Source: a virus (lineage: Duplodnaviria; Heunggongvirae; Uroviricota; Caudoviricetes). From it: 9,840 bases of DNA. Where the stretch lies: IMG/VR virus record IMGVR_UViG_2693429623_000020. The stretch is one strand, 5' to 3'. Below the pieces are notes generated by a model, which was not told the DNA's origin, made no database searches, and saw nothing but the letters and a program-made list of their open reading frames with translations. Made by a program: the position numbers and the translations under genes. Positions 1-9,556 of this stretch are shown piece by piece; position 1 is the stretch's first letter; every line of letters starts with the position of its first letter.

Positions 1-1239
1 ATGAGCAGCGCAATTCATAGACTTAGCGACACTCTTTTACGAAAATTAAGCGGATCACCAACCACAAAAAACGCCTTTTTTAATGACGGTGGCAATCTTA
101 GCGTAAGACATTCCACCAGCGGCCTGTTAACCTGGTATTTCACTTACAGGGCCGGAACTGGCAGGCAGGTATCACCGGAACGCCTGAGACTGGGCAACTA
201 TCCCGATCTGAGCCTGAAAGCAGCCAGGGAAAAAGCGGCACAGTGTCGCGCCTGGCTGGCGGAGGGGAAAAATCCACGCCATGAGCTTAATCACACAGTG
301 CAGGAAGCGTTAGCCCCTGTGACGGTTAAGGACGCGCTCACTTACTGGCTTGAGTCGTATGCGAAGGAAAAGCGCACTGACCACGAATCACTGAAAAGCC
401 GTATCAATAAGCACATAATCAGCCAGATTGGTGCTATGCCGCTGGATAAATGCGAGCTACGCCACTGGCTGGCCTGTTTTGACCAGCTTGCTAAGCGTAA
501 TCCGGTATCAGCCGGCTTTTTGTTGCAGGTATGCAAACAGGCGCTTAAGTACTGCCGTAAACGTCGCTACGCCGTCAGTAACGTTCTTGATGATATGGTC
601 GTAGGTGATGTGGGAAAAAAAGCAGAAATAAGCGAGCGAGTGCTAACAAACAAGGAGCTTGGCGAGCTACTCCGCGCACTGGATGAAAAAATTTTCCCGC
701 CGTACTACAGCGCTTTAATTCGCCTTCTGATTGTCTTCGGATGCCGCACCACTGAGCTAAGACGCTCCGAGGTTCGGGAATGGGATTTTAAAGAAATGCT
801 CTGGACTGTGCCGAAAGAACACAGCAAAACGAAGGTAGCAATATTCAGGCCAATACCGGAAGCGATCTTGCCGTTCGTCATGAAGCTGGTGGAGCAGAAC
901 AGGCACACGGGCTTATTGCTTGGAGAACTGAAAGGGCAATCATCCGTAGCAGAGTACGGAAGAACGGCACACAGACGCATTAATCAAACCCCCTGGTCGT
1001 TGCACGACATCCGGCACACATTTACAACCATGCTGAACGATTTAGGCGTGGATCCGCATATTGTCGAACAGCTTACTGCCCACCAGATGCCAGGAATGCA
1101 ACGCGTCTATAACCACTCCCGTTATCTCGATGCAAAGCGTGACGCTCTTAATCTATGGGTAGACCGTCTCGAGCTTCTCCAGAACAATGATGAAAAAATC
1201 GTTGTTATGACCCCGCGAATTTACCCCCAAAATTCTTGA
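1..1239 (+). CDS. int: Tyrosine recombinase / site-specific integrase, P4-type (412 aa)
   Basis: N-terminus LSDT..K.....DGGNL.....SG...W.F.YR fits the P4-type integrase N-terminal domain; C-terminal region has HDIRHTF and RVYNHSRY consistent with the His/Arg/Tyr catalytic residues. ATG at position 1, stop at 1237-1239. Confidence 0.9.
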   Translation: MSSAIHRLSDTLLRKLSGSPTTKNAFFNDGGNLSVRHSTSGLLTWYFTYRAGTGRQVSPERLRLGNYPDLSLKAAREKAAQCRAWLAEGKNPRHELNHTVQEALAPVTVKDALTYWLESYAKEKRTDHESLKSRINKHIISQIGAMPLDKCELRHWLACFDQLAKRNPVSAGFLLQVCKQALKYCRKRRYAVSNVLDDMVVGDVGKKAEISERVLTNKELGELLRALDEKIFPPYYSALIRLLIVFGCRTTELRRSEVREWDFKEMLWTVPKEHSKTKVAIFRPIPEAILPFVMKLVEQNRHTGLLLGELKGQSSVAEYGRTAHRRINQTPWSLHDIRHTFTTMLNDLGVDPHIVEQLTAHQMPGMQRVYNHSRYLDAKRDALNLWVDRLELLQNNDEKIVVMTPRIYPQNS

Positions 1240-1656: not shown

Positions 1657-1866
1657 ATGCGTGAAATAAATGAAGATCGCGTAATCCGTGAGGATGAATG
1701 TCGTAAGTTAACTGGAGTGTGTCGCACTACACGCTACGAACTGGAGAAAAAAGGGAGCTTTCCGTCTCGCCGTAATCTTGGTGGGCGTTCTGTAGGTTGG
1801 CTGCTGTCCGAGGTTATGGAATGGGTTAAAAGCCGGGATCGCATTAATTCAGGTAAGGCAGCGTAA
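1657..1866 (+). CDS. alpA: AlpA-family phage regulatory protein (excisionase-like HTH), 69 aa
   Basis: Translation MREINEDRVIREDECRKLTGVCRTTRYELEKKGSFPSRRNLGGRSVGWLLSEVMEWVKSR follows the AlpA pattern (TG..R.T.Y......FP....LG.+SVGW...E...W). Start chosen at the internal ATG 1657 (AGG 7 nt upstream) rather than the ORF-track start 1570. Confidence 0.8.
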   Translation: MREINEDRVIREDECRKLTGVCRTTRYELEKKGSFPSRRNLGGRSVGWLLSEVMEWVKSRDRINSGKAA

Positions 1867-2544: not shown

Positions 2545-2621
2545 TGTAAGACAATATACACATAAAAAGTCTTACATAAAAGCATTGACATGTAAGCCAC
2601 CTATAAATAAAGTTACTTACA
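2545..2621. promoter_or_regulatory. Divergent promoter/operator region with four TGTAAG half-sites in two inverted pairs
   Basis: TGTAAG at 2545-2550 and 2591-2596; CTTACA at 2571-2576 and 2616-2621. TTGACA (2585-2590) and a -10-like TAAAGT (2608-2613) at 17-bp spacing lie between them. Sits between the divergent RHH gene and the rightward Icd-like gene. Confidence 0.45.
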
Positions 2622-2719
2622 CCTTGTTAATGCAAGGTGCAGAAACGACGAAACCCCGCACTGTAGGAGCAGTAACGGGGCTTCTAACCACCAACGATAG
2701 CAAGATTATCGAGGCAGCT

Positions 2720-2923
2720 ATGAGAAATCATACCATACACCCGCAAGGGCGGGACTCGTACAACCTGAATAAATACATCTGGCGTTTTATCGCCCTGAGC
2801 ACCGCACAACCGCGCGTGATTCACATCGTGGCCACCAGCGAACAGGAAGCACGCCAGCAATCCCCGGCTGGCTGCGTGATGGTATTCGCCGCCCGTATTC
2901 GTCAGGGGGTGTGCCATGCCTGA
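2720..2923 (+). CDS. Small protein resembling the host cell division inhibitor Icd-like family (67 aa)
   Basis: Only the 3' end of the 348-aa ORF-track entry is taken as coding, starting at the ATG at 2720 (GAGG 5 nt upstream). The pattern YIWRFIAL...ATSEQEARQQ....VMVFAARI resembles Icd-like small proteins of enterobacterial satellite prophages as I recall them; not verified by search. Confidence 0.45.
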   Translation: MRNHTIHPQGRDSYNLNKYIWRFIALSTAQPRVIHIVATSEQEARQQSPAGCVMVFAARIRQGVCHA

Positions 2924-3236
2924 TATGTCAAATTACCAGTACCTGATTAATCCGCATTTTAACTGTGAGCATGATATTGCTAAAAAGGTTTATTCCGCTG
3001 CGGATGGGGCTACTGACAATATATCAATGGCTGTTGCGTCAATTGGTAGCCTGATGTGGCATGCGTCAGAAAATGAGGACTATGACGAAAAGGCCATGCG
3101 CATTGATATGGGTAATATCGGTTTGTTACTGGCAATGCTTGGACATTTTGATATTTCGTTACGGTGCACCATTGAAAATGCCACAGATGCATTAAATGCT
3201 ATAAAGAAAGCGAATACTGATTCAAATCGGGGATAA
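2916..3236 (+). CDS. Hypothetical protein (106 aa)
   Basis: ORF with AGGGGG RBS; overlaps the preceding stop by 8 nt (translational coupling). No recognisable motif. Confidence 0.55.
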   Translation: MPDMSNYQYLINPHFNCEHDIAKKVYSAADGATDNISMAVASIGSLMWHASENEDYDEKAMRIDMGNIGLLLAMLGHFDISLRCTIENATDALNAIKKANTDSNRG

Positions 3237-3242
3237 ATAATC

Positions 3243-3542
3243 ATGAGAACGTATTTATCTGGCTTGACTGCCAGCGGTTATGCACACCCCCAAATTATCC
3301 CCGGCGCTATTTATCTTGATAAGAACGGTAACAGAGTAACGGTAAAAGAACTGATGTTTGACCGTGTGTATTTTATTCGTGATGGCTATTCATTTCATAG
3401 TTCGCTGAACGTGGAGATCTTTATTAGCAGATTCAGGCGGGAAATCCCGCTTTCCAGAAATAACCATGTGTCACGTGTGGATGTGGATAAAAAACTACAG
3501 GAACTGAAAAACATGATTGCCGCGTGGAGAGAGCAGAAATGA
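3243..3542 (+). CDS. Hypothetical protein (99 aa), translationally coupled to the replication gene
   Basis: ORF whose stop overlaps the start of the next gene (ATGA at 3539-3542). No recognisable motif. Confidence 0.55.
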   Translation: MRTYLSGLTASGYAHPQIIPGAIYLDKNGNRVTVKELMFDRVYFIRDGYSFHSSLNVEIFISRFRREIPLSRNNHVSRVDVDKKLQELKNMIAAWREQK

Positions 3543-5356
3543 AAAAAGCGCCAAATTTAAAACACCAGCCGCGTGACAAAATGACGGAAGTCATCATTTT
3601 TGCGGGTAGTGATGCGTGGGCACATGCGAAACAGTGGCAGGAACAGGACGGGCGACTGGCTGGCGATAACGTGCCACCTGTCTGGCTTGGAGAGCAACAA
3701 CTTGTCGAACTGGACAACCTGCAAATCGTACCGGACGGACGCTATCGCGTGCGTCTCTATCAGGCGGGGTTATTGCGTCCGGGGCTTGTTAATACCATCG
3801 GGCAGAAACTGGCAGAGGCAGGTGTCAGGGATGCTGATTATTACCCTGAAGGAATGCACAGCCAGAAACGGGAGAACTGGCGTGAATATCTGGAACGTGA
3901 ACGGGCAGAGCTGGCGGAAAAGAAAAAGGTAGTTGAACTGCCTGTAAAGAAAAAAGAGCGGGTAAAAGACGATAACGCTTCATCACTGGCGCTTAACCAG
4001 ATGGGAGCAAGTCAACGCGGCGAAGTTCTCCTGGCACATTATGGCGGTGAACTGGCGATTCATGCTGACTCTGACACTGTTCACCATTACAACGGCATTG
4101 TATGGGAGCCAGTACAGGATAAAGAATTACAGCGAGCTATGGCGCAGATTTTCATTGATGCGGAGATCAGCTATTCGCAGAACGCCATTAAATCGGCGGT
4201 CGATACCATGAAGTTAAGTTTGCCTGTTATGGGGAATACAGCCCGTAACCTGATTGGATTCAGTAACGGGGTATTTGATACCAGAACAGGTAATTTTCGG
4301 GAGCATAACAAAAACGACTGGTTGTTAATTGCCAGTGAATTACCTTTCAGCCCACCAGCAGAGGGGGAAACGCTGGCAACACATGCGCCGAATTTCTGGA
4401 AGTGGTTACGCCGTTCGGTGGCTGAGAATGACCGCAAGGCGGATCGCGTACTGGCTGCATTATTCATGGTGCTGGCGAACCGGTACGACTGGCAGTTATT
4501 CATTGAGGTAACAGGTCCAGGGGGAAGTGGTAAAAGCGTGATGGCGGAGATTTGCACCATGCTGGCGGGTAAGGCCAACACAGTATCGGCAAGCATGAAG
4601 GCGCTGGAAGATGCAAGGGAACGCGCGTTAGTGGTTGGCTTTTCGCTGATTATCATGCCGGATATGACCCGCTACGCTGGTGATGGGGCAGGAATTAAGG
4701 CCATTACAGGCGGTGACAAGGTGGCAATTGACCCGAAACACAAAGCCCCCTACTCAACGCGTATTCCGGCAGTAGTGCTGGCGGTTAACAATAACGCCAT
4801 GTCATTCAGTGACCGCAGCGGGGGGATCTCACGTCGTCGGGTGATATTCAATTTTTCGGAAGTTGTACCGGAGAACGAACGCGATTCAATGCTGGCGGAA
4901 AAAATAGAAGGTGAGCTGGCGGTAGTGATTCGTCATCTGCTTACACGGTTTGCTGACCAGGACGAAGCCAGACGCCTTTTATATGAGCAGCAGAAATCAG
5001 AAGAAGCACTCGCGATAAAGCGTGAAGGTGATTCGCTGGTGGACTTCTGCGGCTATCTCATGGCGTCGGTAATGTGTGATGGCCTGTTAGTGGGTAATGC
5101 TGAAATTGTGCCATTCAGCCCGCGCAGGTATCTCTATCATGCCTATCTGGCTTATATGAAGGCACATGGGTTTGGTAAACCTGTAACACTGACGCGCTTC
5201 GGTAAAGATATGCCGGGGGCAATGGCGGAATATGGCAGGGAGTATATGAAACGGAAAACGAAGCACGGTTTGCGTTCAAACGTGACACTGACGGAGGAAT
5301 CAGAAGACTGGATGCCATCATGTGTATCGGTCACTAATGACGATAGCAAAAATTAA
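3539..5356 (+). CDS. Replication initiator, P4-alpha-like C-terminal region (D5_N-like plus SF3 helicase P-loop NTPase), 605 aa
   Basis: Walker A motif EVTGPGGSGKS; the surrounding NGVFD..TG...EH and FW.WL.R context is typical of the phage/plasmid primase P4-family C-terminal domain. Start set at the ATG at 3539 (ATGA overlap, GGAGAG RBS) rather than the track start 3524. A canonical primase domain is not obvious in the N-terminal 250 aa. Confidence 0.85.
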   Translation: MKKAPNLKHQPRDKMTEVIIFAGSDAWAHAKQWQEQDGRLAGDNVPPVWLGEQQLVELDNLQIVPDGRYRVRLYQAGLLRPGLVNTIGQKLAEAGVRDADYYPEGMHSQKRENWREYLERERAELAEKKKVVELPVKKKERVKDDNASSLALNQMGASQRGEVLLAHYGGELAIHADSDTVHHYNGIVWEPVQDKELQRAMAQIFIDAEISYSQNAIKSAVDTMKLSLPVMGNTARNLIGFSNGVFDTRTGNFREHNKNDWLLIASELPFSPPAEGETLATHAPNFWKWLRRSVAENDRKADRVLAALFMVLANRYDWQLFIEVTGPGGSGKSVMAEICTMLAGKANTVSASMKALEDARERALVVGFSLIIMPDMTRYAGDGAGIKAITGGDKVAIDPKHKAPYSTRIPAVVLAVNNNAMSFSDRSGGISRRRVIFNFSEVVPENERDSMLAEKIEGELAVVIRHLLTRFADQDEARRLLYEQQKSEEALAIKREGDSLVDFCGYLMASVMCDGLLVGNAEIVPFSPRRYLYHAYLAYMKAHGFGKPVTLTRFGKDMPGAMAEYGREYMKRKTKHGLRSNVTLTEESEDWMPSCVSVTNDDSKN

Positions 5357-5369
5357 ACTTATGGAATAA

Positions 5370-5592
5370 CTGTTCACCACTGTTCACCCTGTCATAAATA
5401 TCTTTTGTATCAGTATGTTATAGGGTGAACAGTTATTTATGAACTGTTCACCAAACTATTCACTGTTCACCTTTTTGATTGTTTATTGAGCTTCAAGGGT
5501 GAACAGTGGTGAACAGTTGGTGAATAGTTTTTGTGAAACTGTTCACCCCTTAACATTATGAATTAAAAGATAAAATATCAAAAGGTGAACAG
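5370..5592. repeat. Replication origin: at least nine 9-bp iterons CTGTTCACC / GGTGAACAG in both orientations in an AT-rich background
   Basis: CTGTTCACC at 5370, 5380, 5444, 5463, 5539; GGTGAACAG at 5424, 5498, 5508, 5584; degenerate copies near 5454 and 5518. The core TGTTCACC is the type I iteron bound by P4 alpha (from memory). Located directly after the alpha-like gene. Confidence 0.8.
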
Positions 5593-5643: not shown

Positions 5644-5889
5644 ATGACAGCGAAGCACACAAAAAAATCACAATCGCACGCCCTTGATTTGACGGAACAC
5701 TGGTTAAGGGTGTCGATAAAAATCATCGACCGCAACGCCGGGGAAGGATATGCGAAAGCACATCCCGAACTGATTAGCTCATTCATGACAACGGCAGCTG
5801 CAAACTTTGCCACGCTGACAGAACGGGAGATTGCCGAAGCGGAACAGGTGACAACCATCAACGTTAAAACCGGAGAGCAGACAGCATGA
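5644..5889 (+). CDS. Hypothetical protein (81 aa)
   Basis: ORF whose stop overlaps the start of the SSB-like gene (ATGA at 5886-5889). Weak RBS; no recognisable motif. Confidence 0.45.
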   Translation: MTAKHTKKSQSHALDLTEHWLRVSIKIIDRNAGEGYAKAHPELISSFMTTAAANFATLTEREIAEAEQVTTINVKTGEQTA

Positions 5890-6269
5890 CAGCACAGATA
5901 GCGGCTTACGGGCGGCTGGTGGCTGACCCGCAGTTAAAGACCACCAGCAAGGGTACACAAATGACGATGGCGAGTATGGCGGTCCCACTTCCGTGCAGCC
6001 AGGCAGATGACGGAACGGCGACGATGTGGTTATCCGTCCTGGCGTTTGGCAGACAGGCCGAAGCACTGGCAAAGCACCGCAAGGGCGAACTCCTGAGCGT
6101 GGCGGGTAACATGCAGGTGAGCCAGTGGACCGGACAGAACGGGGAGACGCGGCAGGGCTGGCAGGTTATCGCAGACAGCGTAATCAGTGCGAGAACGGCG
6201 CGACCGGGCGGCAAAAAAGGCCAACAGGCGGGAAATGATGATCCGTACGGGGATAACATACCGTTTTAA
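5886..6269 (+). CDS. ssb: Single-stranded DNA-binding protein-like (OB fold with SSB-type acidic C-terminal tip), 127 aa
   Basis: Ends in DDPYGDNIPF (E. coli SSB ends DDDIPF). The core pattern G.L..DP...W..V..FG..AE.....KG....V.G.......W....G..R matches the SSB OB fold. Confidence 0.65.
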   Translation: MTAQIAAYGRLVADPQLKTTSKGTQMTMASMAVPLPCSQADDGTATMWLSVLAFGRQAEALAKHRKGELLSVAGNMQVSQWTGQNGETRQGWQVIADSVISARTARPGGKKGQQAGNDDPYGDNIPF

Positions 6270-6284
6270 GCAACGAGTAACAGA

Positions 6285-6307
6285 AGCCGGAGCAATCCGG
6301 CTTTTTT
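6285..6307 (+). terminator. Rho-independent terminator after the SSB-like gene
   Basis: Hairpin AGCCGGA-GCAA-TCCGGCT followed by TTTTTT. Confidence 0.7.
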
Positions 6308-6309
6308 AT

Positions 6310-6381
6310 GGGTCCTCCCGGTGTAGTGACCTGCCACGGGGCGGGAGCGTCGCGGAAAAAGGCTGGTTTTTGCATTTTCAT
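6310..6381 (+). other. cos-like element, copy A (lambda cosQ-cosN-like), upstream of the capsid module
   Basis: GGGTCCTCCCGGTG...CCACG GGGCGGGAGCGT CGCGG...TTTTCAT. Lambda's right end/left end junction as I recall it is TTTACGGGTCCTTTCCGGTG...GTTACG | GGGCGGCGACCT | CGCGGGTTTTCGC. 66/72 identical to copy B. Putative 12-nt cohesive end at 6339-6350. Confidence 0.55.
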
Positions 6382-6693: not shown

Positions 6694-6900
6694 GTGAGTT
6701 GTATTAATGACCTGAACACGGGCGATATCAGGGGTGGTTCCGTTCATCTGGATGCGCAGACCGTTATGCGCCTTAAGCAGTACAGGATCGACCATATAAA
6801 TCATCATCCTGACAAACCATTACCAGGTGTGGCGCAGATTGTCAGACATGCCGTAAACACCTGGCTTAATCAGAATGGTTTTGCATCGGTGGGGGAATAA
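6694..6900 (+). CDS. Small RHH-like putative DNA-binding protein (68 aa), first gene of the capsid operon
   Basis: GTG start with AGAGGAAG RBS. SVHLDAQTVMRLKQY...VAQIVRHAVNTWLNQ fits a strand-helix-helix pattern. Its stop overlaps the start of the capsid gene (TAATG). Confidence 0.5.
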   Translation: MSCINDLNTGDIRGGSVHLDAQTVMRLKQYRIDHINHHPDKPLPGVAQIVRHAVNTWLNQNGFASVGE

Positions 6901-8813
6901 TGAATCGCTGGTACACCATTAAGGCGGCGGATGTTCGTGGAGCGGCGGATATATCTATCTATGAGGAGATTGGCGGCTTCGGTGTTACTGCAAAGCAGTT
7001 CGCGGAAGACCTGAAAGCCCTTGGCGATGTTTCACATATCAATCTGAGGATCCATTCACCAGGTGGTGATGTGTTTGAAGGCATCGCCATCTATAACCTG
7101 CTACGGAATCATCCGGCAGACATTACGGTTTATATCGATGGTGTTGCGGCTTCAATGGCTTCGGTGGTCGCAATGGCTGGCGATCGTGTAGTGATGCCGG
7201 AGAACGCCATGATGATGATCCATAAACCGTGGGGGATCTCTGGCGGAAATGCTGGCGATATGCGTGATTATGCTGATTTGCTGGATAAGGTGGAAACCGT
7301 GTTAATCCCTGCTTATGCCAGAAAAACGGGCAAATCAGCACAGGAAATTACCGCCATGCTGGAGGATGAAACCTGGATGGATGGGAAAGAATGCCTTAAG
7401 CACGGTTTTGCTGATGAATTGTTGCCATCCGTCAGAGCAATGGCGCGAATTGAATCGAAACGCACAGGAGATTTTTTACATATGCCGGAAACCATTAAAG
7501 GAATGATTACACCGCCACAGGGAGCGGCAAATATTGCTGGTAATGAACAGAAGCGCATCAATGGAATAAGTGAAGTGTTTAGCCTGTTCGGCAGTCGTTA
7601 CGACGGGATCAAAATGGCGTGTCTGGAAGATGCATCATGTACACCGGAAATGGCCCGTGAAAAGCTGTTGAACGAGCTGGGGCGCGAGTCCACGCCATCC
7701 AATAAAAATACCCCGCCTCATATCTATGCTGGAAACGGAAACATAACAGGTGATGCAATTCGTCAGGGGCTTTATTCCCGTCTTGGGTATGAACGGCCTG
7801 AACGAGGCAACCCTTACGCGATGATGAGTCTTTTTGAAATGGCCCAGGCATCACTGGTTGATCGTGGTATCACTGTGAGCGGTTTTATTAATCGCTCGCA
7901 GGTTGTTAATGCGGCTTTTACACACAGCAGCAGTGATTTTTCTCATATTCTGGCTGGTGGGGCTGAAAAATCTGTACTGAAAGGCTGGCAGGACAGCGGC
8001 GAAACGTTCCAGAAATGGACGCGTACCGGTTCGCTTTCAAACTTTCATGAAGCAAAGCGCGTTGGTCTGAATGGTTTTTCAAAGCTGGATAAAGTACCGG
8101 AAGGTGCGGAATATAAATACATCACCACCAGCGATAAAGGTGTACCTATTGCGCTGGCCACGTACGGGAATATATTTTCCGTTACCCGTCAGGCCATTAT
8201 CAACGATGACCTGACCCAGTTAACTACAATCCCCATGGCGATGGGACGCGCAGCTGCCAGAACAGTTGGCAATCTGGTTTATCTCCTGTTAACCAGCAAC
8301 GGCAAGTTTACGGATGGTAAAGCGTTATTCCATGCCGATCATAAAAATCTTATTGCGAAGGATATGGACATGGAGGGGCTTAACGAAGCCCGTAAGCTGA
8401 TGCGCCTCCAGGAAGACGCTAACGGCGATTCGCTGAATATTACCCCTGCATTTGTCCTGGTCCCCGCCGCGCTGGAGTCTGCCGCACATCGCGCCATTCT
8501 GTCATCGTCATCACTCTTTCCGGTTGATGGCGTGGGCACTATCAATCAGAACCCCGGCATCATTAACGTGGTGAAAGATATGGCGGAGGTAATCGTTGAG
8601 CCACGTCTTGATAAAGCCAATAACAAGGAGTGGTATGTGGCAGCGGCGAAGGGTATGGACACGATAGAGGTCGCTTATCTTGATGGTATTGATACGCCAT
8701 ATCTTGAGGAGCAGGAGGGCTTTACTGTTGATGGCGTCGCCTGGAAGGTGCGCATAGATGCAGGTGTAGCGGCCCTCGACTATCGCGGATTACTGAAATC
8801 GAGTGGAGCATGA
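6900..8813 (+). CDS. ClpP-like (S14) prohead protease fused to an HK97-fold major capsid protein (637 aa)
   Basis: N-terminal about 190 aa contain DGVAASMASVVAMAG and MMIHKPWGISGG, matching the ClpP active-site Ser and His motifs (GQAASMGAF / MIHQPLGG). The C-terminal 350 aa (..TIEVAYLDG..FTVDGVAWKVRIDAGVAALDYRG) resemble HK97-like major capsid proteins. GGGGGAA RBS. Confidence 0.85.
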   Translation: MNRWYTIKAADVRGAADISIYEEIGGFGVTAKQFAEDLKALGDVSHINLRIHSPGGDVFEGIAIYNLLRNHPADITVYIDGVAASMASVVAMAGDRVVMPENAMMMIHKPWGISGGNAGDMRDYADLLDKVETVLIPAYARKTGKSAQEITAMLEDETWMDGKECLKHGFADELLPSVRAMARIESKRTGDFLHMPETIKGMITPPQGAANIAGNEQKRINGISEVFSLFGSRYDGIKMACLEDASCTPEMAREKLLNELGRESTPSNKNTPPHIYAGNGNITGDAIRQGLYSRLGYERPERGNPYAMMSLFEMAQASLVDRGITVSGFINRSQVVNAAFTHSSSDFSHILAGGAEKSVLKGWQDSGETFQKWTRTGSLSNFHEAKRVGLNGFSKLDKVPEGAEYKYITTSDKGVPIALATYGNIFSVTRQAIINDDLTQLTTIPMAMGRAAARTVGNLVYLLLTSNGKFTDGKALFHADHKNLIAKDMDMEGLNEARKLMRLQEDANGDSLNITPAFVLVPAALESAAHRAILSSSSLFPVDGVGTINQNPGIINVVKDMAEVIVEPRLDKANNKEWYVAAAKGMDTIEVAYLDGIDTPYLEEQEGFTVDGVAWKVRIDAGVAALDYRGLLKSSGA

Positions 8814-8820
8814 CAACAAG

Positions 8821-8843
8821 GGCGGCGATAGCCGCCTTTTTTT
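8821..8843 (+). terminator. Rho-independent terminator after the capsid gene
   Basis: Hairpin GGCGGC-GATA-GCCGCC followed by TTTTTTT. Confidence 0.7.
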
Positions 8844-8845
8844 AC

Positions 8846-8917
8846 GGGTCCTCCCGGTGGGGTGGTCTGCCACGGGGCGGGAGCGGCGCGGAAAAAGGCT
8901 AGTTTTTGCATTTTCAT
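8846..8917 (+). other. cos-like element, copy B (lambda cosQ-cosN-like), about 150 bp upstream of the Nu1-like terminase gene
   Basis: TTTACGGGTCCTCCCGGTG...CCACG GGGCGGGAGCGG CGCGG...TTTTCAT. Same arrangement as lambda, where cos precedes Nu1. Putative 12-nt cohesive end at 8875-8886. Confidence 0.6.
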
Positions 8918-9070
8918 TCGTCATCATCATCTTCATATTGTATTGAATTTTAAGTATTTTTATTTTTGGTATGTTAATTTTGCTTGTTTTATGCTCAACA
9001 TATAGCGCATTTTTTGACCTCTTCTGAAAGTTGTTCGCAAGATGCATGTTTAAAACATTCTGGAGCGGGT

Positions 9071-9556
9071 ATGGATCGAGAACTGAAAAATCTGATGCTG
9101 AACATTAATCAACTGGCGGCGATAGCGGGAATATGTCGTCAGACTGCGGCGGCAAGGCTGAAAAACATCCAGCCAGCCGGAGGGCATGACAAGCTGAAAC
9201 TCTATCGGGTGACTGACATTCTGACCTGTTTTCTTGATCTTCCCGTTCCGGCATCACTGGAAGAAATGGAGCCACATGACCGTAAGGCCTGGTATCAGTC
9301 CGAACGTGAACGCCTCAAGTTCGAACAGGAAACGGCGCAACTCATACCCGCCGATGATGTGCGAAAAGAGATGGCTATATGGGGAGAAATCGTAAGCGAG
9401 GAACTGGCAAAACTCCCCAATATTCTGGCACGTGATGCCGGGCTTAAACCGATGGCAGTAAACAGAGTGCAGTCAATTATTGACGATTTGTGTAATCAGA
9501 TTATCAGCCGGATGGTAAAAAATGACGTAGTGAATGAGGTCGCAAAACAGGCATGA
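9071..9556 (+). CDS. Terminase small subunit-like protein (lambda Nu1-like N-terminal winged HTH), 161 aa
   Basis: Start at the internal ATG 9071 (GGAG 5 nt upstream). LNINQLAAIAGICRQTAAARLKNIQPAGGHDKLKLYRVTDILTCF parallels Nu1 VNKKQLADIFGASIRTIQNWQEQGMPVLRGGGKGNEVLYDSAAVIKWY, and it sits just downstream of a cos-like site. It could instead be a packaging-redirection factor (Rpp-like). Confidence 0.6.
   Translation: MDRELKNLMLNINQLAAIAGICRQTAAARLKNIQPAGGHDKLKLYRVTDILTCFLDLPVPASLEEMEPHDRKAWYQSERERLKFEQETAQLIPADDVRKEMAIWGEIVSEELAKLPNILARDAGLKPMAVNRVQSIIDDLCNQIISRMVKNDVVNEVAKQA

Follow-up and report, generated by a model that had tools for sequence, protein, structure and literature searches.

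What do three small genes between a promoter and a replicase gene do for a phage satellite? We asked this of IMG/VR record IMGVR_UViG_2693429623_000020, a 9,840-nt stretch of Caudoviricetes DNA analysed here over its whole length (the window), in which genes for an Icd-like protein, a protein of 106 residues (ORF106; ORF, open reading frame) and one of 99 residues (ORF99) precede a primase-helicase gene. The window is a Gram-negative satellite of the phage-inducible chromosomal island (PICI) type from E. coli, about 10 kb long, chromosomal and equipped with its early operon: int, alpA and pri-rep are co-oriented, ori iterons lie 3′ of pri, and the size falls in the ~10–15 kb class. We read the segment as the promoter-proximal part of the PICI early (replication) operon, built on the grammar of the P4 left operon and reached by AlpA-driven read-through, and assign this reading a probability of roughly 0.6.

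Are the three ORFs genes? All three are present in the window, and a 99% identical copy of the island, flanked by rcnR and thiM in E. coli Ecol_224, has the same three coding sequences in RefSeq, named Icd-like, hypothetical and DUF4222. ORF106 lacks a Pfam family and has very few database relatives, as chance ORFs or annotation artefacts would, but the conservation data refute such an explanation and we give it virtually no credence. The three are marked as genuine genes by hidden Markov model (HMM) matches, by purifying selection, by conserved junctions with Shine-Dalgarno (SD) sequences and overlaps, and by diverged homologues that other genera carry in the corresponding position. The dN/dS ratio is 0.13–0.42 for the Icd-like gene across genera and 0.06–0.25 for ORF106.

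The Icd-like gene overlaps ORF106 by 8 nt (ATGCCTGA) and ORF99 overlaps the primase gene by 4 nt (ATGA; primase ATG at 3539, as in RefSeq), whereas a 6-nt spacer separates ORF106 from ORF99 (TAA ATAATC ATG). An earlier reading of the segment from its letters alone (the sequence-only reading), which had all the genes linked by overlapping stop and start codons, was therefore right for two of the three junctions. Among 17 related loci, overlaps were found at 69 of the 79 junctions from Icd to replicase (30 of 8 nt and 30 of 4 nt). The overlap of Icd with the next gene is 8 nt in the window and in 13 of these loci, and GGAGG is typically encoded in the Icd 3′ end, 6–7 nt upstream of the next ATG. 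Coupling is clearly a selected property of this operon family. In the gene arrays of related loci L003–L024, many small ORFs end in V-R-H-A, overlap the next ATG by 8 nt and have an embedded GGAGG (for example L012, at 4149, 4333 and 4499); this recurring joint may serve translational coupling together with cassette exchange by recombination.

The Icd-like assignment made from sequence alone was borne out, with 71.2 bits against the NF033153 model (cutoff 25) for a 67-residue protein of isoelectric point (pI) 10.3. For P4 kil this model gives 73.9 bits. In P4, the old ‘cI ORF’ contains an Icd-like domain (NF033153, 7.8e-21) and its last 65 codons, with their own SD and ATG, are kil; PHROGs labels the family of gene 1 ‘transcriptional repressor’ because this ORF carries the same domain. 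An SD (GAGG) lies 5 nt upstream of the Icd ATG, and both are conserved in 23 loci. The gene has the layout of its family, whose members are ORFs of about 60–75 aa that carry an SD and ATG of their own, come first behind a regulated promoter and are translationally coupled to the gene that follows. By homology, gene 1 is a P4 Kil relative nested in an Eta-like frame.

How far does this frame extend? It is open for 308 codons 5′ of the Icd ATG, compared with 7–11 codons in the other frames, and its ATG at 1877 is preceded by a good SD (AGGGGAG-N4-ATG) and lies 10 nt after the alpA stop. Over the 540 nt upstream of Icd, 20 of 22 related loci have no in-phase stop; the 22 loci together have 16 stops in phase versus 254 and 250 in the other frames, each of which has 6–16 per locus. 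L008 and L014, both islands embedded in a helper, are the only two loci with stops interrupting the frame. The frame crosses the 59-aa ORF and the YlcI/YnfO gene in antisense and then the promoter and leader. We rejected the idea that the 348-aa ORF is a real domain protein, as neither Pfam nor PADLOC gave a match; since the extension has no recognisable domain, we take it to be a translated spacer. Forti et al. (1999) reportedly dealt with eta translation and Rho-dependent termination in P4 and with the lethality of over-expressed kil. In P4, only transcripts that come from upstream allow translation of eta, which in turn keeps Rho from terminating them (PMC10111431).

Toxicity of the Kil/Icd peptide bears on a different explanation of the whole segment. 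By analogy with P4, whose kil kills when over-expressed (PMC10111431), the Icd-like peptide may block division or kill, and the operon could be an abortive-infection or superinfection-exclusion device in which a phage protein is the trigger and the peptide halts growth together with the linked genes. In ECOR61, an Icd-like gene and linked genes including a primase cause phage-triggered growth arrest (Silas et al., bioRxiv 10.1101/2023.04.06.535777), which also favours the suggestion of the sequence-only reading that the segment holds host-takeover candidates. However, the ECOR61 locus could not be shown to be of the window’s island type, and PADLOC found no match for the three proteins or the long frame. 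The same operon also carries a replicase for the satellite’s own spread, so that runaway replication may bring about the arrest as a by-product. We consider a dedicated device of this kind unlikely.

What controls the operon? The promoter is sigma-70-like (TTGACA 2585–2590, TAAAGT 2608–2613) and is bracketed by operator-like GTAAG/CTTAC repeats at 2546, 2571, 2592 and 2616, whose sequence varies among islands while their position is kept. The YlcI/YnfO gene is divergent from the Icd promoter here and in most related loci. Its sequence pattern looks ribbon-helix-helix-like, and PDB searches with sequence and profile gave nothing below E = 0.2. Because position-kept repeats bracket the promoter and the YlcI/YnfO gene diverges from it, a protein repressor is suggested: the YlcI/YnfO product is a candidate island repressor acting on the flanking repeats. 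Fillol-Salom et al. identified no master repressor in Gram-negative PICIs and saw likeness to P4 only in int, alpA and pri (PMC6092414); YlcI/YnfO may be this missing repressor. A terminator-like hairpin (1894–1913) lies 3′ of the minus-strand 59-aa ORF.

Between promoter and Icd lies a structured leader of ~100 nt (minimum free energy –35.1 kcal/mol, z = –3.7) with hairpins HP1 (2620–2639), HP2 (2650–2684) and HP3 (2695–2711). HP2 forms a 13-bp stem with interruptions and has TAACCACCAA after it, and HP3 abuts the SD (GAGG, 2711–2714). RNAalifold reported compensatory changes at 10 of 13 leader pairs. For HP2 and HP3 together, 91% of the alignment cells are paired and both sides change in 11 of the 17 pairs, with compensatory changes spanning 13 genera; none of 500 shuffles was as good, and slid controls reached 33–43%. 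The conserved CU.ACCA 3′ of HP2 is reminiscent of a tRNA minihelix, and ARAGORN detected no tRNA or tmRNA. One might speculate that HP2 is cut by RNase P, as are c4 and CI. We did not find the leader among Rfam families, and it is possibly a new PICI regulatory RNA motif. A screen for antisense targets (9-mer complementarity over ~3 kb) returned only the operator inverted repeats ~200 nt upstream, with no conserved target.

ORF99, an unknown in the sequence-only reading, turned out to be a DUF4222 protein (PF13973, 60.6 bits, cutoff 27) of the named and partly characterised RgdR family, whose described members include RgdR (ECs1581, 99 aa; O-island 51), c1493 (CFT073) and ECED1_1787 (ED1a) (PMC3378721, PMC10877973). 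RgdR switches on the LEE1 promoter, represses motility and binds DNA weakly and non-specifically (PMC3378721); its activity depends on residue 20 of an RGD motif (PMC3378721, PMC10877973). In ORF99, P20-G21-A22 stand where RgdR has R-G-D; RgdR-type copies with R-G-D at residues 20–22 lie directly 5′ of pri in L002–L004. The ORF99 model has a Tudor/KOW-like barrel and a basic C-terminal helix, and the predicted DUF4222 fold resembles RNA polymerase-binding Tudor/KOW domains; in PDB sequence and profile searches nothing scored below E = 0.2. ORF99 may alter host transcription as RgdR does, with which the modelled fold and the basic pI of 9.9 are compatible. The suggestion of host takeover thus gains a family member known to reprogramme host expression (PMC3378721), whereas its anti-defence part found no PADLOC match.

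ORF106 is the least familiar of the three. It matches phrog_15327 end to end (2e-71). Diverged homologues in the corresponding position of other genera are 25–66% identical, and those at 25–42% identity belong to this operon in species of Superficieibacter, Pantoea, Hafnia, Rahnella, Rosenbergiella and others. An exhaustive HMMER search over 1.8 billion representatives gave only ~10 true relatives, and comparison by locus widened the family to phrog_6805-type proteins of 100–107 aa. The pI is 4.1–5.1 in 12 of 13 members (4.8 for ORF106) and 6.5 in the exception. The AlphaFold2 model is a two-helix hairpin (helices 19–51 and 58–104, pLDDT 79). ORF106 is an acidic helical hairpin of a small, satellite-restricted family, and most likely acts by binding another protein. 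Several candidate relatives were rejected. Foldseek against PDB and BFVD returned merely generic helical hairpins (E > 0.1), the repeat proteins matched by phmmer (P0058, TPR-like; P0060; P0063) were repeat-summed artefacts, and a family of 72–80 aa in the same slot shares only a 16-column N-terminal ‘M.D.Y’ match (probability 6%).

The position of ORF106 is that of P4 epsilon, and the sequence-only reading had pointed to small helper-manipulating proteins there. The position and the 8-nt overlap after kil/icd do agree, and the genes coupled to icd-like gp32 in N15 are placed alike; ORF106 is also small and acidic, like many protein-binding inhibitors. It could by analogy be a functional counterpart of P4 epsilon, P1 Ant or N15 Ant that inactivates a helper prophage repressor. 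However, hhalign gave a probability of only 0.2% for homology of ORF106 to epsilon, unrelated small ORFs fill the slot in other islands (one to five small helical ORFs in the ORF106 interval), and ORF106 does not co-vary with the island’s own YlcI allele. Known helpers of Gram-negative PICIs are lambdoid, and the signal is known to run from helper to AlpA to island (PMC6092414), opposite to the manipulation of the helper by the island that had been proposed. A role as helper derepressor follows from position only and appears highly improbable to us.

Could ORF106 and ORF99 instead serve replication? The two genes form a single inherited block with the part of the replicase gene for residues 1–146; around it, the Icd allele differs in L006 (54% identical) and the replicase C-terminus in L007. 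The long form of DUF4222 (80–99 aa) lies directly 5′ of the replicase gene and overlaps it by ATGA in the 8 charted E. coli loci carrying that form, whether the replicase is of the D5-primase or the DUF927 type. Most ORF106-family genes in other genera lie immediately 5′ of replication genes, and 50,697 phage records contain virtually no member of either family. As accessories of the replication module, the two proteins might aid loading of the primase-helicase at ori or regulate it. On the other hand, RgdR affects host promoters in trans while its island is uninduced, the short DUF4222 form does not adjoin primase in L017 and L022, and L005, L013 and L019 share the replicase N-terminus but have no DUF4222. 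Our searches also showed no likeness to known loaders or initiator partners. We regard an accessory role as possible, if somewhat unlikely. Roles in replication, in abortive infection and in the manner of epsilon are not mutually exclusive.

A bolder proposal pairs the ORF106 and DUF4222 families as protein-binding effectors specific to satellites. As a cofactor that binds RNA polymerase (or works in the Rho/NusG pathway), DUF4222 would rewire host transcription and sustain elongation of the replicase message, and ORF106 would be a new kind of antirepressor or inhibitor occupying the epsilon/Ant slot. An undescribed switch would deliver both, with a 348-codon translated spacer running antisense through the island’s own repressor gene and also through a tRNA-minihelix-like leader that Rfam lacks. 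We think this distinctly improbable.

The P4-type operon with AlpA-driven read-through, which we prefer, would work as follows. In the quiescent island the internal promoter would be held down, with YlcI/YnfO at the flanking repeats as the candidate repressor. A helper phage would then switch on AlpA, the helper-dependent activator of Gram-negative PICIs whose over-expression leads to pri-dependent runaway replication (PMC6092414). Upstream transcripts would be translated without a break, starting at alpA and passing via the Eta-like frame and Icd to ORF106, ORF99 and pri, the SD in the Icd 3′ end and the 8-nt overlap passing ribosomes to ORF106. By analogy with P4 eta, continuous translation would shield the message from Rho termination, and the replicase would be expressed; read-through would in this way override the repressed internal promoter and the leader. 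The Kil/Icd peptide would act in cis as a coupling ORF, and in trans it might be toxic or division-blocking and arrest the cell. ORF99 would modulate transcription as RgdR does and may bind RNA polymerase or, non-specifically, DNA, and ORF106 would bind a protein partner.

Several observations weigh against this model. The N-terminal 281 residues of the Eta-like frame are domainless and resemble antisense translation, and translation of the frame is deduced from its SD and the absence of stops. With the Rfam models RF01695, RF01394 and RF03163 we detected no C4/CI or isrK RNA in the window at E ≤ 10 and none in 15 related loci, although P4 as a positive control scored 74.9 and 60.8 bits for C4 and isrK; C4, isrK and c4-a1b1 of Rfam were accordingly rejected as identities of the leader RNA. 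Because no C4/CI or isrK RNA is present, the immunity mechanism of P4 cannot simply be transferred. The RGD tripeptide, which is important for RgdR on LEE1, is missing from ORF99, and identity to RgdR-type proteins is just 33–35%. ORF106 has no informative homologue, with no relative in Pfam, PADLOC or PDB (sequence and profile, nothing below E = 0.2).

Features of the window are collected in the table below.

Table 1. Features of the 9,840-nt window, with strand and the basis of each assignment.
Feature	Position	Strand	Basis or remark
Integrase	1–1239	+	Family searches
alpA, AlpA-family activator	1657–1866	+	Pfam Phage_AlpA 4.8e-16; stop 1864–1866; upstream gene of the coupled chain
Eta-like long frame, 348 codons	1877–2923	+	Last 67 codons are the Icd-like gene
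59-aa ORF, 3′ of ylcI	1981–2160	–	57–100% identity in L001, L002, L004, L007
YlcI/YnfO-family gene	2218–2538	–	NF041551 5.6e-20
Control region	2546–2620		Sigma-70-like promoter and operator-like repeats
Structured leader RNA, three hairpins	2620–2714	+	Folding and covariation
Icd-like / P4 Kil-family gene, 67 aa	2720–2923	+	NF033153 5.3e-20
ORF106, 106 aa	2916–3236	+	phrog_15327 / phrog_6805
ORF99, 99 aa, DUF4222 / RgdR family	3243–3542	+	Pfam PF13973
D5/P4-type primase-helicase (pri-rep)	3539–5356	+	Pfam D5_N, DUF5906, Pox_D5; TIGR01613; RefSeq start
Small ORF	5644–5889	+	
SSB	5886–6269	+	
ClpP-protease/major-capsid fusion	6900–8813	+	
DUF1441 TerS-like gene	8984–9556	+	

How widespread is this arrangement? 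Near-identical copies of the 1.1-kb region, almost complete in length, occur in 376 of 5,426 complete E. coli genomes and in none of the 50,697 phage records. Conservation of the leader and icd DNA extends to 1,475 E. coli genomes, and the operon architecture is kept across 13 genera of Enterobacterales. DNA homology among islands ends exactly at the Icd stop/ORF106 start, which argues that the downstream genes are exchanged as cassettes.

Outside the operon we noted further features. Just 3′ of pri (5355–5572), inverted sets of TGTTCACC iterons surround an AT-rich stretch, a layout that agrees with published replication origins of E. coli PICIs. An 80-nt direct repeat, 91% identical, occurs at 6302–6381 and 8838–8917, each copy 3′ of a gene end (SSB; capsid fusion) and 5′ of a late-type block (orf68/capsid; TerS-like); perhaps both blocks are regulated through this element when a helper controls late expression. 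The nearly identical L001 island stops soon after the TerS-like gene, with no portal or other head genes. L008, L014 and L026 are islands inside prophage capsid, protease or terminase genes, that is, helper-embedded PICIs. An int-alpA RNA motif (RF02996) lies between int and alpA in L009 (1117–1185), L010 (618–686) and L024 (1264–1329); a search of the window did not detect it.

E. coli is rich in Gram-negative PICIs. As the operon follows P4 in the Kil/Icd ORF, the Eta-like nested frame and the 8-nt coupling to the gene in the epsilon slot, P4 grammar provides a concrete and testable model for the path from AlpA induction to the replicase. RgdR, known to regulate virulence and motility in enterohaemorrhagic and uropathogenic E. 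coli, is also put into its native context as a gene coupled to a satellite replicase. ORF106 and the leader RNA are well-defined experimental targets. The operon type, two of the three gene families and the eta/kil logic in PICIs were already known (PMC10111431). New here are the definition of the ORF106 family, the predicted fold of DUF4222, a covarying leader absent from Rfam, the explicit Kil assignment with its identical overlap geometry, and, for the stop-free frame antisense through the YlcI gene, its size and ubiquity.

How does the island compare with known systems? ORF99 resembles RgdR (O-island 51 / CP-933C), c1493 and ECED1_1787 in its DUF4222 domain, its length of 99 aa, its basic character and its location in an island of P4 ancestry or PICI; it differs in having P-G-A rather than R-G-D at 20–22 and is 33–35% identical to them. 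Gram-negative PICIs of the EcCICFT073 type, with Integration, Bro, Replication and Late zones, share with the window the co-orientation of int, alpA and pri and are likewise islands of ~10 kb located in the chromosome. They are also alike in SSB and ori iterons after pri, followed by capsid and TerS-like genes (PMC6092414, PMC10111431). In contrast to them, the window island has no Bro-N domain protein, and the small genes from Icd to pri are not described in PMC6092414 or PMC10111431.

N15 has icd-like gp32 followed by coupled genes, which we take to be the ant genes (gp32, gp31 and gp30 overlap by 4 nt), and the layout in P1 is c4-icd-ant; such immI-type operons share the grammar of the P4 left operon. 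An icd-family ORF followed by coupled genes is common to the window, P1 immI (c4-icd-ant) and N15 (CA RNA-icd-antA/B/C). The P1 and N15 operons are controlled by a C4-type antisense RNA and end in antirepressors, whereas that of the window has no C4 RNA and ends in a replicase.

The closest counterpart is the P4 left operon (P_LE / CI RNA / kil in eta / epsilon / orf151 / orf106 / alpha), and the analogy to P4 drawn in the sequence-only reading held for the Kil/Icd family, the nested frame and the 8-nt overlap with the next gene. The window differs from P4 in having another covarying leader in place of C4/CI or isrK (seqA) RNA, a YlcI/YnfO gene antisense inside the long frame, and no Phage_ASH domain in that frame, a domain that P4 Eta has. 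Epsilon, orf151 and P4 orf106 have no homologues in the window, and DUF4222 is absent from P4; we found no homology between ORF99 and P4 orf106/DUF5375. In both, the Kil/Icd ORF is the first after promoter and leader and forms the 3′ part of a longer ORF in the same frame, which begins 5′ of the promoter, after an alpA/vis homologue (PMC10111431). In both, too, the start of the following gene lies 8 nt ahead of the Kil/Icd stop, P4 epsilon (GTGCGTAA) having the same geometry as ORF106, and both operons end in a D5/P4-type primase-helicase.

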